DNA of 64,000 nucleotides, taken from Hypanus sabinus (lineage: Eukaryota). The notes under the pieces are model-generated. The model searched no databases, was not told where the DNA came from, and was given only the letters and a program-made list of their open reading frames with translations. The DNA lies in assembly GCF_030144855.1 (NCBI RefSeq), contig NC_082725.1, forward strand, positions 15,376,001 through 15,440,000. The letters run 5' to 3'. Both the position numbers and the translations under genes were made by a program. Below are positions 52,818-64,000 of the stretch, in pieces; the stretch's first letter is position 1, and every line of letters begins with the position of its first letter.

Positions 52818-53039
52818 TGTTATGTTTTGTAATTTCAAAACATTAAACTAATTCAAAGGAAGACATGGAAGTCCAGAAATGTGTGTCTAACTTTTTGAGT
52901 TTACTTTAATAGAGGTGGGCATGTATCACGTATTTATACATGTATTCCATAATGAATCATTTAAACAAACAAGAATTCCCAATCAAAGAACATATTTACA
53001 AAGTTACTCAAATGTTACTAAAACATTAAATGCACAACA
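52818..53039 (-). repeat. 3' LTR of copy A
   Basis: Minus strand TGTTGTGCA…CATAACA directly after the PPT; homologous to 58081-58316. Confidence 0.88.
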
Positions 53040-53334
53040 CTCCTCCCTGCTTAGCTATAAACTCCAACTCAATAGAGAATGCATCTCAACTATATGTACT
53101 GACATTCACTGCAGAATAAATTTTAAATTGTCCCATTCAGGCTTAAAGAATTAATCACTGTGGAGTATTTCTTAATCTTCTGGGATAATGTCGTTCCTGA
53201 CAAGGGGGATCACTTTGCTTGGCAGCTAAGACTTGTGATTGTGAAACAATCTCACATTCGGAGGCCTCCTCCGTGATCATTGTAGGAGTTGTCTCTGAGA
53301 CTGCAGGAAGTGATTCTGACAGCTCTGGGTATCT

Positions 53335-53930
53335 TTCTTCTCCTTCATTTTTCTTCTTCTAGCTTGTGCATCTTGATCATGGGAAGCAGTATTTATTTTA
53401 CTGCAGTATTCTCTTATTAAAGTTTCTAAAACTAAAGTTACTAAAACTTCAAATGCTCCCTTTATGATCAGTTCTCTCCTCTTGGCTTCCTCATCCACAA
53501 AATCATCTGACAAATCCTTTGTTTTCATATCTCAATTTACTCCTTTCTCTTTGGTCTTCCATTCATCCAGCTGGGCTTTGGTCTTTGCATCTACTTTTAT
53601 GAGCAGCTTTTTTTTCTTTCACTTGAAGTTCTTGCAATAACCTTTATTCATGTAGAGTAGATTTTGGCTCTTTATACTTACTAAAGCCATTTCCTTGCAA
53701 CTTTTCTGAAACTCCTTGAACTCCCTTCCAGCTTAAAACCAAGTCACTTTCACAAGGAAATGCCTGATTCACTCATCAGAAGTCTTCTCACATATGCTGC
53801 CTATGAAAACTGTTGAGGTTGGACCACTAATTTCCTCTGAGCAATGGTCCTTCCATTGATTCTTTAAGCTTTTTAACAAGAGACATGGAGATTGGCACTA
53901 ACACCTGGTTGCCCATTGCTGGGGAGCAAT
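53335..53930 (-). pseudogene. RBM25: Processed RBM25 fragment (RRM and downstream region) inside LTR copy A, disabled
   Basis: QVLVPISMSLV…KDH…GPTSTVFIGSICEKTSD…LVLSWK.VQG…KYKEPKSTL…KKLLIKVDAKTKAQLDEWK…DEEAKRRELIIKGAFEVL…LIREY; several stops and frameshifts. Confidence 0.88.
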
Positions 53931-55429
53931 TCATGGTGTACAGCATGGAGACAGTTGTGGTATCATTCAATATCTTTCTTAATTAGCTTTCAGTTGGCTT
54001 CATTGCAGTGGATGTGGCACGCAAATAGTGGTTGTAGTTGTTTCAACCAGTCCCATCCCCACAATGCTGATCCTCCTGTTTTTACCACATTCAAGTCCAA
54101 CATCGTTCCCACAGATGTTACATTTTATCCTGTATAAGTTCTTAGTTGGATATCTGCAGGCTTCAATTTGGCATAATTTAAATGCCATTCAAACTTATTT
54201 TGTTGAATGACTGAAACAGCTGAACCTGTGTCCAATTCCATTTTAATTAATTTTCCATTCAGTTCTGGTGTAAGCTATATTGCCCGTCTATTGTTAGCTT
54301 CCACATTGTGAATCTCAGGGGTACCTAGTCCTGCGTCATTCTCATCATTATCAGATTTTTCATCAACAGCATGCAGTTTAGTGCACTTTTTGAAACTACA
54401 ACTTAACTTTTTAGTTTTGCTCTTCCTTGTGCAGTCCATTTATTTTCGTCTGCCCAACATGACCTTTGTATGTACTTTACTTCCTTGCATTTTCTGCAAG
54501 TTTCACCGTTATATCTGCATTTGTTTGTTATATTTGAGCCATTGCCAAAATGGAAACACAATTTGGTTGGCCTCACTGATTTCCATTTAGAAGTTGCAAT
54601 TTTGTTTGTGCTCACTTTCATTCCTGAGTGCAACTCAGTTACATCTCTGCCTGCTGTTTCCATTGATACAGCAATTTCAACTGCTCTTTTCAATGTAAGT
54701 TGTGTTTTAGTTAGGAGCTGTTTTTGATTGCTTTCTTTTAAGATTCCACAAACTAAACAACCTCTCAGTGCATCATTAAGTCCATCCTTGAACTTACAAT
54801 GCTCAGACAATGTCTTCAATTCAGCCATGTACGCAGAAATGGTCTCCCCTTCCGTTTAAATCCAGTTATGAAGCCTAAAATATTCTGCAATCAGCAATGA
54901 TTTTGTTTTTAAATGTTTCCTGCATTCCTTTCACAATATCAACAAAGTCACATTTCCGCTAGTTTGGTTGGAGTAGTCAAATTTCGAAGCAAACTGTATG
55001 CTTTTAAATCCAATGCGCTCAGCAAAATTTGTACTCTTTTCTAATTGCCTATTTAATTTGCTTCAAAGTACTGTACAATTTTCTCAGTATATAAAATCCA
55101 GTTATTTGATGTGTAATCAATCATGTCTAACTTTCTGATGTATCCAGCCATTTCTGTTCTTTCTTTTATGATACTTCTCTCCCAGTACTTACCGTTTACG
55201 AACCATGAATCGTTCTGTCTACTGACTGTTAATTTGACAGTCCCTGCATGTGCTTGCACTTCTGTTTATTTTACCTCCTGTTCCTCATTGTGGTTTTTTT
55301 TAAATTCAAGTGCCTTGATTCATTTTCAACATGTTGGTAGCCATCTCAGGTTTATTTTTAAAATACTTCATCACAACTGTTACGTTCTGAAACTAAGTGA
55401 AAGGAAGACAAGGGAGTCTGAACCATAGG

Positions 55430-56309: not shown

Positions 56310-57020
56310 AAATTCATATTTACTTCAAGTGAACCTTTCCACCAGACCATTTAAAGCTGGTGGCATAGTACAGATGTATAATATCATATTCCATCCACTT
56401 GCAGGAATGACTGAAACTGCTCCCCCACAAACTGTGGTCCATTGTCACTCACTAAGTGTTTTGAACCACCAGTCCTTGTCAATTCAATACAGTCTTTTCA
56501 ATACATCAGCAGTGTGCAAGGCTGCAGTGGAGGCTATTGGCAACACTTCAAGCTACTTTGTAGCTGCATCCACAACTATCAAGGAGTTTATGCCCATGAA
56601 TGGTTTGGCAAAATCCACAAGAATCCTCTGCCAGGGCAAAGCAGGCCTTTCCCAGGGATGGAGAGGTGCCGCTCTTTGCAACTTCTGGATGTGTTGCCAT
56701 ACCAAACAATGCTCGATCTGTTTATCAATCCCAGGCCATCAGACAAAGCTGTGAGCCAATGCTTTCATTATAACCATGCCTGAATAATCAGCATTTCGCT
56801 CCTCCAACACTTTAGCTTTCAGTTTTGATAGTACAACAAAATCCCCACATAAACCAACCTCTGTCAAGGGCAAGTCCATACTGGCTCTGGTAAAAATGGT
56901 GGAACTGGAATATCTGTAGCACATTCCAGCCATTATGGGTGGCCATGTAGACCTGAGATAGTGTGGCATCTTTTCTGATTTCTCTTTGAATCATCTCTCC
57001 CATAATAAGGAGACTTTCAA
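56310..57020 (-). mobile_element. Gypsy pol fragment (post-RNaseH linker, zinc-binding region and integrase core), decayed
   Basis: IQREIRKDATLSQV; SFV*WPG; PWQRILVDFAKPFMGINSLIVVDA; HLVSDNGPQFV. Confidence 0.88.
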
Positions 57021-57122
57021 TTTAATTGTCGAGTTAAAAAAAAAGGACAGTAAATGGAAGAATTCACAATACATAAATAGTGAGTACTGGGTGATAACAA
57101 TCATTTTTTAAAAAGAGCAGAA

Positions 57123-57740
57123 ATGGCTGGCCATATCAGAAAGCATATTGGACCAAGGAAGGACCTTGCTTCTCAGATGAATTGTGAAAGAGGTCAAAGC
57201 AGAGGTTTGACTATAACAGTTTTTGCAGGCAACATATCTGACAAAGCTTTTGGTATGTTGATTGGGATTTTACGTGCAAAATGTGGCTTGGTTTTAAGCT
57301 GGAAGAGAGTTCAAGGAGCTTCACGAAAATTGCAAGCATTTAGCTTTCGTGAGTATAAAGTATCAGAATCTGCTCTGCGTGCTTTAAGTTTATTGCATGA
57401 ACTTCAAGTTGGAGACAAAAAGCTGCTTGTAAAAGTAGATGCAAAGACCAAAGCCCAGCTGGAGGAGTGGAAGGTCAAAAAGAAAGAAGTTCAATGGAGC
57501 TATGAAAACAGAGGATTCATCAGATGTTTTGAATGAGGAATCCAAGAGGAGAGATCAGATATTAAAGTGAGCAATAGAAATATTAATAGAGAATACTCCT
57601 GCAAACTAAATGCACATTCCCAAGATCAAGATGCATAAACTAGAAATAAGTAAACAGAAGAGCAAGATAAAGAGAGAAAGAAGCAGAGACCAGGACAGAA
57701 GCAAGGATCAAAGTTGCCCTTCAGAGAGAAAAGCAGAAAG
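57123..57740 (+). pseudogene. RBM25: gag(7 aa)::RBM25 chimeric reading frame; RRM still open for 137 codons (57123-57536), frameshifted thereafter
   Basis: MAGHIRK|HIGPRKD…TVFAGNISDKA…AKCGLVLSWKRVQGASRKLQAF.F.EYK..ESALRAL.LLHELQVGDKKLLVKVDAKTKAQLEEWK; then NEESKRRDQILK*AIEILI.EYSCKLNA and RERSRDQDRSKDQS..REKSR, all matching vertebrate RBM25 as I recall it. Confidence 0.92.
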
Positions 57741-58080
57741 AAAGTAGAAGAAAGATGTCCAGAGCTGTCAGAACCACTTATTGCAGTGCCAGAATCAAAT
57801 CCTACAACCACCATGGACGAGGCCCCAAAACCTGAGATTGTTTCAGAGTCACAAGTTTCACCTGCCAAGTACAGTGATTCCCCTTGTCAGGAAGGATGTA
57901 ATCCAACAAGAGCAAGGAATCCTCCACAGCGATTAAATTTTTAGGCCTGAATGGAACAATTTAATATTTACTATACTGTGGATATCCATATTGTAGTTAC
58001 AGTATATTACATATTATACTGTTTATATAGTTGAGATACTTTCTTTATTGAGTTGGAGTTTATAACTAAGTCGGGAGTAG

Positions 58081-58316
58081 GGTTGTGCACTTAATAATTA
58101 AATAATCTTATAAATATATTGTTTGATTAAGCATTCACTGTTGTCAATATAATTCATTATGGTTATATGTAAAAATACATGAATTACAAATGTTATGATG
58201 CTATCATGTGATATGTGCATGCCTTTCTTAAAGTAAATACAAATTTAGAGTCACATATCAGACTCCCTTATCTTCCTTTGAATTCGTTTAATGTTTTGAA
58301 ATTACAAGAAATACCA
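58081..58316 (+). repeat. 3' LTR of copy B
   Basis: GGTTGTGCAC…GTTTAATGTTTTGAAATTACAAGAAATACCA, inverted homolog of 52818-53039. Confidence 0.85.
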
Positions 58317-58339: not shown

Positions 58340-58575
58340 TGTTCTCTCTAGCCTCTGTAATTCCTTTTACTCCCCTGTAATACTGACACATCTGACTTTA
58401 TCTTCTCCCTCCCAAACTGCAGATTAAATTCTGTCATATTATGGTCATTGTCTCCTACATGCTCCTTTTCCTTAAGCTCCCTAAGTAAATCTGCTTCTTT
58501 ACACAACACCCAATGCAGAATTGCCTTTCCCCTTATGGGCTCAACCACAAGATGCTCTAAAAGGACATCTCGTAG
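58340..58575 (-). mobile_element. CR1 endonuclease fragment
   Basis: VEPIRGKAILHWVLC…GDNDHNMTEF. Confidence 0.8.
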
Positions 58576-60529
58576 ATGTTATTCAATCGTGGACATGATA
58601 AGTATGGTAACAGTAATTCCTCAGTTTGCTTCCAAAATAATGTTAAGGAGCAGATTGTTGATGAAACATTCCATATATTCATTGGAGTTATTTATGATTT
58701 GTAGACAGATTGCAGATAAGGTCTGTAACTGAAAATACATTGCCATTTTCTATGCAGATTCATTCTCATTCCAAAGTTGACAGTTTATTTCAATAGACGA
58801 CTGAGGGACTCTGACAGATGTTGTTCATTTTCAGGAGGAAAAATTACCATATCATCTGCATTGCACAAATATGTGATAAAGCTATCGCTGATAGAAATTG
58901 CAGCTGTCATTGCAATCACTCATTTTATTGAATTAATGCGGTGCCTAATGGACAGAGAGGCATATCGCCCCCATTGTTTCAAATGTTCCTGAGCTGTGTA
59001 CTTGAGTGTGACCATATGCAAAGTTAACATGAAAGCCTGACTGCCTTTTGTTGTTAGATGTTCACTCGCACAAGCCGGAAAATCTCAAGAAAGCAAAATC
59101 TCAGAAGCCTTCTTCATTCAATACAATCTCTTTTGGTTAACAAATAAGAAGACATAATTATCAAGTTATTTAATTAGATCTTCATTAAAAGGATGCTCAA
59201 ACATTAATGACATTAAAACCATTGCATGTACATTACACAAAATAAGGCTCATTAGAGCAGAAAAGGGAAGTTTTATCATTATGATGCACATCTATTAAAG
59301 AATTCTAGTGTGCATGAAGTCTTCCTTATTATTCCATTTGTGCTTCCTGTACTGTTTAATGGACTTCTTTCCAATTTCACATTATAGAGTAGAGTTTCAA
59401 ATATTTATGAAGAGAATTTGCCTGGGAAGGTGCCTATTTTTAAAGTAATAGCTAAGCTGAGCAAATTAATATGAGCTGCTTGTGAAAGTTGTTTTATATA
59501 TAGCTCGTTGTACCACATTATATGTGGCGCATGTCTACAAAAAGTCTATTAAAAGTCTGTGAAAAGTTTATTTTTCAGATTGTTATGAAATCTGAAGTCT
59601 TTTACGTTATTAAATCATGTGTGCTCTCTTGCATAGAATTTGTATGCATGAAGTACACTTATAAAAAGTTATTCATTTATTCTGTGTTCTCAATACAGAT
59701 GTACAATCTGCTGGAAGTGCCTTTAGATAGAATACTAGATATATACAGACCCAAGATCTCAGTGCTGTTGCCTTTGTTCGGTTAAGGAATTTAGTCAGTC
59801 AATGATAGAACAAGAATTCCTTTGGAGGCATGGACTTTCCATAAACAAGAGTAATGAATGGCAATGAGTTTCCACTTAGCTGCCATTCTTTCCAAAAAGG
59901 TCACTATGTTGATTTTCTATTAAATGTTTCACAATTCTGCAAAAAGTCAAATCTATCCAACTATTTTATCAACATTATAAATATACTAGGACAAGAGACT
60001 TCATTTCTAACAATGTCTAAAACTTTCCAAAGCACACTTATATATTTTTTTTTGGAAAATGTAATCCCAAAAAAATCTGCTGAATTAATGTTTCAGGTCA
60101 TGGACCCTCTCACAGGACTGAGCCTCCCCCGATGAACTGGTTTCTTTTTCCACAGATGTTGCCTGCCTGGCTGAGTTCTTCCAGAATTTTCTTGTGGTTT
60201 CAGATTCCAGCATCTGCAATTTTGTATGTTTCCTTGAAACCTCAACTTTTGTTCACAGTGAAGCCAGATGAATCTCTTCCCCATGTTGTTACCCTTGAGT
60301 CCGCTTTTCTGAATACCTGATGCCACAGGAGATTGGGCCAAGCACATCACTTAAAAGCTGGCAAAATTCAGTCAAAGAAACACTGACCCTTGAACTCATG
60401 ACCTATGTCACAATGAAATCAGTGCTCTTATCTGTGATGCTGAGCCAACTGTACTGTTTCTCATAAATTGTGGTTTGATTTAGTCACATATCTAATCTTG
60501 ACCCTATTGGCCTGTCTAACTTCGACGTT

Positions 60530-61260
60530 AGAAACACAGAAACATAGAAAACCTACAGCACAATACAGGCGCTTTTGCTCACAAAGCTGTGCCAAACATG
60601 TCCTTACCTTAGAAATTACCTGGTGTTACTCTTAGCCCTCAATTTTTCTGAGCTCCATGTACCTGTCCAGAAGCCTCTTAAAAGACCCCATCATATCTAT
60701 CTGCACCACCATCGCCAGCAGCCCATTCCACACACTCACCCCTCTTTGCATAAAAAAACTTACCCCTGACATCTCCTCTGTATCTACTTCCAAGCACCTT
60801 AAAATGGTGCCCTCTCATGCTAGCCATTTCAACCCTGGGAAAAAGCCTCTGACTATCCACATGATCAATGCCCCTCATTATCTTATATAACTCTATCAAG
60901 TCACCTCTCATCCTCCATCGCTCCAAGGAAAGAAGGCTGAGTTCATTCAACCTATTCTCATAAGGCATGCTCCCCAATCCAGGCAACATCCTTGTAATTC
61001 TCTTCTGCACCCTTTCTATGGTTTCCACATCCTTCCTGTAGTGAGGCGACCAGAACTGAGCACAGTGCTGCAAGTGGGGTCTGACCAGTGTCCTATGTAG
61101 CTGCAACATTACCTCTCAGCTCCTAAACGCAATCCCATGATTGATGGAGGTCAATGCACTGCATGTCTTCTTAACCACAGAGTCAACTTGTGCAGCAGCT
61201 TTGAATGTTCTATGGACTCGGACCCCAAGATCCTCTTATCCTGCACACTGCCAAGAATAT
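60530..61260 (-). mobile_element. CR1 3' end, relatively well preserved
   Basis: LHRTLVRPHLQHCAQFWSPHYRKDVETIERVQKRITRMLPGL…RMRGDLIELYKIMRG. Confidence 0.9.
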
Positions 61261-63229
61261 ATAGTAACCTTGACTTACTCTACTTGTACTTCCTTCAAAA
61301 TGAGTATTTCCTATTATTAGCATTTATTTCTTTAATTATCTTGTTCAGGACAAAATACAGACTGTTCTTTAGATTTCAGATTCAGGTGTATAGCGTGTTG
61401 TTACCAAATCCAAGGCCTAACAGCCTTGTTATCATAAACTTGCTGTCTCCTAATCCTAAATCAATTGTTCATCAATTGATCATTTCTAAAATTCCAAAAT
61501 TTTGCGAAATGCAAGCAGCAATCTTTCTTGTAACTAGGTGATTCAAAACATGGATATAGGCAAGGAAGGGCTCAGAAAATTCAACCGTCTAATTCAATTT
61601 CTCTGAAGACAAACAGTCTCTCCAAGTTTTAATGGAAAAGGCAGATATTTCAAAGCAAAAGTGTGGTACTTGTCATAATGGGTCAAGAACACGTACAAAT
61701 ACCATGTAAAACTGAAGATTGTCCATTTAAATAAGAGTTTAATTCGCAAAGCCTGATCTCAATATTAGAATATTGCAATACTGAGGGTGTATAACTATAA
61801 AAATAAGTGGTAACCCCTCAGCACTAAGCTGCCTATCTCCATATTCAGTATGGCTGAATATGGAGCTGAAGCAAGTGGGTTAGCTAGTCTTTATTCAGTA
61901 TTAAAAGAATACAATAATTCTCTAATCCTCATCATCGACACCAACTTGGCTGCTTTTTCTCCTGAAATTGTGGCAGTCAGTAATGAGCCTTCAATTGTTC
62001 TTCAGATTTGAATTAACACGAGCTCCAACTGGAATATTGAAGGGGCCTCAGCCCTTGGATCTCACTGGTCAAGGTCCATGCCATTGCCTGTCCAGAATTT
62101 TTAAGTTGCATTGATTAAAAAAAACTTTTTAGATAAGTTTATTTTGTAGATTTTAATATTTCACAGATCAAGTCGAGTAGAGTCATAGAGTCCGAGACCA
62201 GTTCAGGATCTGAAGAAAGCCCCTGGCAATCACAAGGAGAATTCTGTGCAGTCAACATCCAAGATCTAGAGTGAACCCAGGACTCTGATGTTGTGAAGTA
62301 ACGCCACAATCAGCTGTGTCACTGTGCTGCTCAGAGATGGAGGTTACCTTCCCTAGTCAGAAGATGTTCTCCTTCTTTGACCTTATGGTGGGCCCTTTAT
62401 AATCAAAATACATTTTGAAAACAGAAATTGGGTGGGGGGGTTGCTAGGTGAAGATTGCATGGTATCATAACCCAAAATTAACTATCCAGGAGATATGGTG
62501 CAGCTTTTTGTTTATTAGTCATTCGTATCTTTGAGTCAGGAGACCAGATCTAGAGCAATAAGGAGTGTAAAAGGGCATTAAAGGAGTTTGAGCAGTCGTG
62601 CTTTATAATGAGTCCAATCTTAGAAGTTTAACCTGTACAAAAAACTAAAAAGCGGCAGGCCACATGCTGAGCTAAGCATTCCCATGGCAAGGTCATGGGA
62701 ACAATGGTAAAAGTGAGTGCAATTACTGAAACAGGAAAAATTTATTGGACACATCAACTCCATCATGGACGATCCCATGTCTGGAGGAGGTAGGGCATGG
62801 AGTTGACAAACTCATTGCATAAAAACCCAGAGCTACAGAAGCTTCAAAGACCTCATCCCTGGAAGAGAAAAGATCTTTAAGGATGGGTTACACCTGAGGA
62901 CAACTTGAAAGATTGGCTCAAGATGGAGAACAATGGTAAGCTGCTGTCAGCAGGAATAGGGGTTATGGACTGAAGAAGATAAAGATTAGTTATATTGGAT
63001 AACATCTCTGAGTCCAATAGAATTTACAGTGATGATATCCAACAATGATGGAATATAAACTCAACACACTGTAAATCCATATGAATATTGTTCATAAACT
63101 TTACAAATTGACAATAATCTTTTGGGTTTCTTTACTTTCTTTTCCATTTTTTAAATGATAGCCAAACAATAATTTCTCCAGTACCATGAAGATGTAATTG
63201 GTATTTAAAAGTAATACTAAAATAAAATA

Positions 63230-63740
63230 AAGAACATAAGAACATAACAGACAGGAGCAGGAATAAGTCAATGGAGGTCCTGAGGCAGCATTTTGTATCG
63301 AAATGTTGACAATCCCTTCCCTTCCACAGGTGTTCCTCAATCTGCTGAGTTATTCAATCATTGCAGGAGTAGTTTAATCAGCCCCTCAGTACCTCTTTGT
63401 TATTTAATTAGATCACAACTAATCCAATTATCAACTTCAATAGAGTTTCCACATGTCTCTTTGTTCCCTTTGAGTTCAAAGGCAATTCTTGGTCTTGAAC
63501 ATATTCAATGACTTGGCTGCTATAGCTGTCTAGAATAAAGGATTCAATGGTTCATGACATGCTGAGGTAAGAAAGTTCTCCTCCTCCCTGTCTTGAGTGG
63601 GTAGTCACATACTTTAAAACATTATCTCCTTGTTTTAGATACATCAACAAGGGGAAATATGTTCTCAGGATTCACGCTTTCAAAATCTTCAGAATCTCAT
63701 TTCTATCAATAAGATCATATCTCCTTCTTTGATATTTCTA
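63230..63740 (-). mobile_element. Old CR1 3' end
   Basis: AAGAACAT-repeat tail and degenerate CR1 3' sequence. Confidence 0.55.
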
Positions 63741-63769
63741 TAATACCCTACCTGTTCAGTATTACCCCT

Positions 63770-64000
63770 TATTCTTTTCCCTTCTGCCTGTTCATTGCTG
63801 TTTAGGACAGCAATGAAGGTTCTCCATCTCTGGTGGTATACATGACTTCCTTCATCATGTCAGTAGCTTCCTCTCAGGTTACTGTCAGCCATGCAAGTCC
63901 CGTGTGGAGACTCAGGAATACTGTCACACTCAGATGTAGAAGGATTCTTCATTGCCATTACTTTAACAGTTTTGTTTGAATAGTCAGGGTTGTTAGCCCT
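63770..64000 (-). mobile_element. Non-autonomous RTE-like element (runs off the window)
   Basis: Colinear with 22300-22520. Confidence 0.55.

Follow-up and report, generated by a model that had tools for sequence, protein, structure and literature searches.

A stop-free gag::RRM frame is a private deletion in one decayed copy of an old LTR-element family carrying spliced RBM25 mRNA

As in the family described here, LTR-mediated retroposition leaves a partial spliced mRNA between the discontinuous halves of an LTR element, with Drosophila CG17604_r, mouse IAPEy retrocopies, and HERV-K/FAM8A1 as described cases (Tan et al. 2016, PMC5131818). These cases, again as here, are often in frame and have gone through further rounds of retroposition, and the article contains no shark case ("shark," 0 occurrences). 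The transduction of host genes by LTR elements has been called occasional (PMC6431247). A survey counted 14,081 retrocopies over all its cartilaginous fishes and tied retrocopies to non-LTR elements (10.64898/2026.06.26.734816), with MIPOL1, SUDS3, SDF2L1, SLU7, and ZNF276 among the top parent genes, and its companion methods discard candidates that are ≥40% repeat-masked (PMC13320880), a filter likely to hide a family such as the RBM25-carrying one. In the portions available, the main text of neither report mentions RBM25, and the supplements of the preprint may list it. Our literature search, with Repbase and Dfam outside its scope, found no report of an RBM25-carrying retrotransposon family.

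The family reported here shows the sequence features by which LTR-mediated retrocopies are recognized, i.e., discontinuous LTR-element flanks, intron loss, microsimilarity, and a partial mRNA. Its usual layout is LTR-gag-protease-RBM25-pol tail-PPT-LTR, the RBM25 cargo replacing the RT-RNaseH-integrase of a Ty3/gypsy element. Two copies lie in the window, i.e., the whole 64,000-nt stretch of DNA analyzed (Table 1). Copy B holds the feature flagged by the first-pass annotation, a 137-codon frame without stop on the forward strand (57123-57536, translation of 137 aa), in which seven gag codons run in frame into RBM25 across a 5-nt overlap. The reading of this frame as a gag start followed by RBM25 proved right: the gag start accounts for its first 21 nt, as in copy A and other copies, and for the rest 249 longer proteins match at E≤1e-10, nearly all of those with a name being RBM25. 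When the genome was searched with query 57085-57200, gag-side matches stopped at query base 58-59 and RBM25-side matches started at 52-55; hence GAAAG at 57139-57143 can be assigned to either parent, with the codon phase unchanged, as expected of the proposed in-frame junction at a shared motif. The RRM is indeed stop-free and followed by damage, since the RBM25 match ends at a +1 frameshift near 57490, the frame terminates at 57534-57536, and stops ensue. The absence of the PWI domain, also claimed earlier, extends to the whole family, whose cargo stops at the start of exon 10. In copy B, exon 8 and most of exon 9 are deleted as well.

Both the 5' LTR, whose lack had been pointed out, and the primer-binding site are missing from copy B. 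Its leader homology begins at ~57027, and the stretch from that point to copy A is devoid of LTRs; the distance from LTR end to gag ATG is 190 to 280 nt in 3 of the 4 copies in which both were found. Without a 5' LTR or primer site, copy B would itself have been unable to serve as a template. An inverted integrase fragment, with a weak rve match (E 0.004), directly abuts the leader, and the same join occurs in contigs of two other organisms; it may have come from a deletion between head-to-head copies. The remainder of the window (1-52800 and 58350-64000) contains many dispersed direct and inverted repeat copies of 60 to 90% identity, presumably LINE/SINE-like.

Table 1. Parts of copies B and A and of the adjoining pol fragment, in window positions
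Feature	Position	Strand	Observation
Inverted parent pol fragment (RNase H link, integrase)	56330..57025	-	76-78% identity to pol-bearing loci
Copy B leader, last ~96 nt	57027..57122	+	aligns to leaders of L025, L048, L053 from 57027-57029
Copy B gag, first 7 codons	57123..57143	+	matches copy A and other gag starts
5-nt microhomology at private ~1.3-kb deletion	57139..57143	+	matches from both sides overlap
Copy B RBM25 exons 4 (part), 5, 6, spliced	57144..57498	+	exon-by-exon host match without introns
Copy B RRM core	about 57216-57437	+	within spliced RBM25 exons
Copy B RBM25 exon 7, followed by residual exon 9 and 10 sequence	57499..57755	+	ends at 3' switch point
Copy B pol C-terminal tail (stop region 57942-57950) and 3' untranslated part	57756..58066	+	common to pol-bearing copies
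Copy B polypurine tract	58067..58081	+	sequence; same position in L163, L164
Copy B 3' LTR	58082..58316	+	agrees with the LTR of copy A and with the two LTRs of more complete copies
Copy A, normal family layout	52818..55421	-	LTR, gag, protease, RBM25, pol tail, LTR
Copy A 5' LTR remnant	55378-55421	-	
Copy A gag ATG	55151	-	
Copy A protease	about 54265-54100	-	weak aspartyl-protease matches, E 0.03-0.14
Copy A switch into RBM25	near 53960	-	RBM25 runs to about 53330, then pol tail
Copy A 3' LTR	53039-52818	-	

The gag::RRM fusion stems from the loss of ~1.3 kb between gag codon 7 and RBM25 exon 4, private to one decayed copy, and is in itself of little importance. In other copies, the distance from gag ATG to the switch into RBM25 is mostly 1177 to 1300 nt, and private shortenings of >100 nt occur in 4 of 22 copies. 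Whether the deletion dates from the reverse transcription of copy B or from after its insertion cannot be told, as both fit. The 4.04-Gb assembly was searched with the RBM25 part (2,498 first-look candidates, 40 of them scored), and in all 29 other top loci fetched, the RBM25 piece sits behind protease-region sequence or normal upstream exon sequence, with a gag start directly before RBM25 in none of the 29. The idea that the fusion lies at the head of an amplified sub-lineage, in which the LTR promoter would express a dominant-negative PWI-less RBM25, draws on the in-frame junction with its microhomology and is the least credible of the readings considered. With the junction as query (40 matches scored of 877 candidates), 39 of the 39 other scored matches cover one side only. 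The junction 17-mer has 178 matches at ≤1 mismatch, and among 30 loci examined from these, gag lies upstream only at the window (0 of the 29 others); the eight other exact matches are six ordinary copies and two unrelated sites. A 35-nt junction pattern with ≤3 mismatches matches the window alone in the whole genome, at a sensitivity to a diverged sibling of 9 to 39%, so that a handful of siblings could still exist; a sub-lineage of any size is unlikely on these sequence searches, on which amplification of the fusion was rejected. Thus, the other genomic copies of the junction that the annotation had proposed to collect were not found in this genome, and the gag::RRM join is not the capture point of the family. 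The accompanying proposal of an RRM product without PWI, driven by the gag ATG, loses its footing for copy B's junction, which bears no sign of amplification, and survives in a weaker form at the level of the family, whose capture is in frame.

The open RRM of copy B was rejected as a sign of selection, open frames being at chance level. Among other copies covering the region, 4 of 78 have neither stop nor frameshift, as do 8 of 79 over the RRM core, and a first sample had a Poisson expectation of 3.7%; in the subsample picked by the 5' switch alone, the counts are 0 of 25 and 2 of 26, the remainder of the sample leaning towards well-kept copies. Of the 149 best protein matches elsewhere in the genome, 35 contain no stop in the matched stretch, with open frames of up to 301 aa. 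On its own branch, as estimated from three-point distances, copy B shows no purifying selection, with a dN of 0.128 (0.089 to 0.173) versus a dS of 0.076 (0.035 to 0.122). It differs from host RBM25 at 28 residues over 115 codons, and 14 of these differences fall in the RRM core, RNP2 and RNP1 positions among them; over this core, the host and the Heptranchias protein P0121 are identical. At a cutoff as loose as E≤1, copy B still has no match to Pfam RRM_1, compared with 2.5e-10 for P0121, and a PDB search returned only a weak PABP match (E 1.4e-4). These results, together with the missing 5' LTR, bear out the earlier verdict that the copy is dead.

They also weigh on a second reading of copy B, as a co-opted mini-gene that would express a 137-aa RRM protein under a neighboring promoter. 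Such a gene has in its favor an open frame with an ATG and the apparent persistence of the locus in two other organisms, which we count against our best explanation. In sequencing runs from these organisms (X17 and X18), contigs cover the RBM25-carrying family at very high depth, and each run holds a single-copy-depth contig that reaches from the integrase piece over the ATG and as far as 57165, i.e., 22 letters past the junction, the threshold for bridging being 31 letters. Since these contigs run from the integrase piece past the junction, copy B and its deletion are likely older than the split of the organisms. No contig listed for two presumed RNA runs spanned the junction, a result that bears on expression neither way. 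Nevertheless, with an excess of dN over dS, core changes at RNP positions, no RRM_1 match, no 5' LTR, and open frames arising by chance in about 5% of copies, co-option of copy B is very improbable.

The origin of the cargo is clear from the host RBM25 gene (G000:C16:113.69-113.75 Mb), in which six exons were delimited, all with AG/GT borders. Copies match the host exons end to end and without introns, at 81 to 89% identity, and thus carry spliced mRNA. The cargo, about 1,071 nt long, opens with the final 9 nt of exon 3, takes in a 48-nt cassette exon, and breaks off where exon 10 has just begun; it is a partial mRNA without poly(A) tail, with the pol tail directly behind it. The 48-nt in-frame exon lies between host exons 3 and 4 (G000:C16:113706119-113706166, AG/GT); it is present in family copies and in Heptranchias P0121, which shares 194 of 203 residues with host RBM25, and the proteins of gar, paddlefish, frog, and turtle that were compared lack it. 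By this distribution, it is likely a cassette exon of cartilaginous fishes. A search for the PWI family did not recover the host RBM25 gene, and a search with the exon-8 peptide matched mainly family copies.

Both borders of the cargo carry microhomology. At the 5' switch, 7 nt (TGCCACA) are common to the end of host exon 3 and to pol where RT starts, in matching codon phase; at the 3' switch, 9 nt (GAGAAGAAA) are common to exon 10 and the integrase tail, in a different phase. In copies without frameshifts, to which the frame reading was confined because phase counts from landmark distances over all copies were too noisy, a single frame runs from zinc knuckle to protease and from protease to RBM25. 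Hence, the capture made a gag-protease-RBM25 frame with the RRM and the RE/RD region and without PWI. While the burst lasted, this frame could have yielded a corresponding RRM product lacking PWI; nothing shows selection for it.

Switch motifs searched at ≤2 mismatches gave 1,005 RBM25-type and 2,214 pol-type sites (controls, 0 to 1), so that RBM25-type copies are 31% of junction matches. The first count is a lower bound (at least 1,005 copies, on many contigs); because the pattern catches roughly half of the copies at about 12% divergence, the true number is likely about 2,000. Of the RBM25-type loci sampled, 30/30 continue into RBM25, 26/30 of them through the RRM core. The pol-bearing parent coexists with this derivative and has the same tail and LTR. 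At parent locus L102, RVT_1, RT_RNaseH, Integrase_H2C2, and rve follow the protease region in gypsy order; the parent may belong to the Mag / K02A2.6-like, single-ORF gag-pol type. The element has a CCHC knuckle, a PPT, and LTRs, with no env seen, and the derivative is without RT, RNase H, and nearly all integrase. LTR matches on both sides were found at 7 of 20 extended loci, giving the element two LTRs together with a PPT and a primer-binding site. Secondary retroposition as a non-autonomous element is thus seen for the family, and not for copy B's junction.

Among the 19 best pol-bearing loci retrieved, 6 (L102, L110, L113, L114, L117, and L119) sit on contig C110, which carries few of the best RBM25-type matches. 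Near-identical groups occur on C87 (L006, L013, and L029, 95 to 98%) and on C1 (L124 and L125); they are likely segmental duplicates, not recent transpositions.

Copies of the family decay neutrally. Over the 80 copies with ≥400 aligned nt (9 shorter copies, 2 near-duplicates of L006, and one repeated locus being left out), copy-copy dN/dS is 1.07 (codon bootstrap, 0.96 to 1.20), as obtained by simple counting in host codon context from pairs that are not independent. The purifying selection for which the first-pass annotation had proposed a test is thus not seen among copies, whose ratio is about 1. A host-copy dN/dS of 0.54 to 0.55 was rejected as purifying selection on the copies, the synonymous change lying on the shared stem. 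The tree is a star, with a mean terminal branch of 0.128 and internal branches that sum to 0.51 versus 10.2 for terminal ones; with almost no internal branches, selection on the cargo during the burst would be invisible either way. No supported clade of ≥3 copies with length appears in the 80-copy tree, and no allele pair among 221 is linked at p<0.001; subfamilies by point changes were rejected on these grounds.

In length, the shared stem (dN 0.020, dS 0.139) is close to a terminal branch. At 9 codons the host and Heptranchias differ; most copies carry the Heptranchias residue at 3 and the host residue at 6, and the host-versus-family differences at the 3 are therefore due to change in the host line. 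Host-line change after capture is the best reading of the stem, and would place capture and burst close in time. LTR pairs agree with the tree, their K2P distance being 0.25 to 0.31 (about 0.28) in 5 pairs with ≥120 nt aligned. Whale shark and zebra shark differ by a dS of 0.061 to 0.111 over about 50 My (PMC13100897), and slow shark rates are supported (PMC10587355). At 0.11 to 0.14 per lineage, this borrowed and rough rate suggests a burst of roughly 100 to 230 My ago.

Deletions shaped the family further: 58 of 77 copies lack exon 8, and recurring variants drop exons 8 and 9 and keep the RRM. Same-size classes in exons 7 to 10 comprise an anchor-to-tail distance of 31 to 40 nt, one of about 142 to 148 nt, and a 129- to 139-nt loss within exon 9. 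These classes, without diagnostic point changes, may be structural variants amplified during the burst. A shared frameshift in the long forms, hinted at by the phases, was not confirmed, indels being mostly private.

The same deletions enter the question of whether the cargo aided the element, as a Gag-protease-RBM25 polyprotein or by keeping an unbroken frame near the PPT, with decay only after insertion; the benefit would be better RNA stability, packaging, or splicing escape. Such a benefit could account for the in-frame 5' switch at the RT start, for the frame entered from RBM25 after the 3' switch, which runs on for about 55 codons until a stop at 57913 that 80% of copies have in common, for the 31% share of RBM25-type copies, and for deletions that spare the RRM, the shortest variant keeping net frame in 16 of 22 copies. 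Each frame coincidence, however, has a 1-in-3 chance, the purine-rich repeats of exons 7 to 10 favor deletions mechanically, and over all 56 copies measured the phases are mixed (26/16/14). Moreover, supported subclades, linked alleles, and internal branches are lacking, and a shorter non-autonomous element is generally known to spread without useful cargo. We consider a helpful cargo unlikely. The more specific proposal, unlikely too, is a joint one: the RRM and RE/RD half was captured in frame at the protease-RT boundary, and its product or the unbroken frame served to out-replicate, giving about a third of the family, and the RE/RD part was later shed in amplifying variants while the RRM was kept. 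If true, it would be a germline counterpart of oncogene transduction in which the cargo benefits the element, and a route to the retrocopy abundance of cartilaginous fishes that repeat-masking pipelines miss.

Altogether, we favor, with a probability of about 0.85, a one-off microhomology deletion in copy B of a family that acquired RBM25 by a double template switch, spread in trans with the cargo as a passenger, and decayed neutrally. RBM25 mRNA would have been co-packaged with element RNA, and the reverse transcriptase would have switched in and out of it at the two microhomologies. The shortened element, which kept its LTRs, primer site, and PPT, would then have been copied in trans by the pol-bearing parent, and the family would have spread in one short ancient burst in which RBM25 probably rode along before decaying. 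Copy B would have lost its 1.3 kb at the 5-nt overlap, at birth or later. By LTR-mediated retroposition, one fragment of a host mRNA thus became >1,000 genomic copies in a cartilaginous fish. An old RBM25 splice form, with the 48-nt cassette exon, is preserved in these copies, which will also be a source of error in RBM25 annotation and read mapping.

Compared with Ty3/gypsy elements, the parent has the same PR-RT-RNaseH-IN order, and the RBM25 derivative differs in its loss of RT, RNase H, and nearly all integrase. Oncogene transduction by retroviruses, with gag-onc fusions, is mentioned in PMC6431247. Such viruses generally depend on a helper, and they too carry an intronless host coding sequence in place of pol and in frame with gag; unlike in those viruses, no env is seen here, the copies are in the germline, and no selection for the cargo is seen. 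Closer is maize Bs1, likewise an LTR element with internal host exons and identical switch points in all copies, although Bs1 has 1 to 5 copies and three parental genes, whereas the present family has one parent gene, >1,000 copies, and a retained gag and protease (PMC5131818). The microsimilarity at switch points, with a median of 6 bp in the retrocopies of that study, is 7 and 9 nt here. Those retrocopies are mostly young and single or low in copy number, in contrast to at least 1,005 copies with one switch point and about 13% divergence in the family described here (PMC5131818). LTR-mediated retroposition is thus a known mechanism, and it is the copy number of the RBM25-carrying family that is unusually high.
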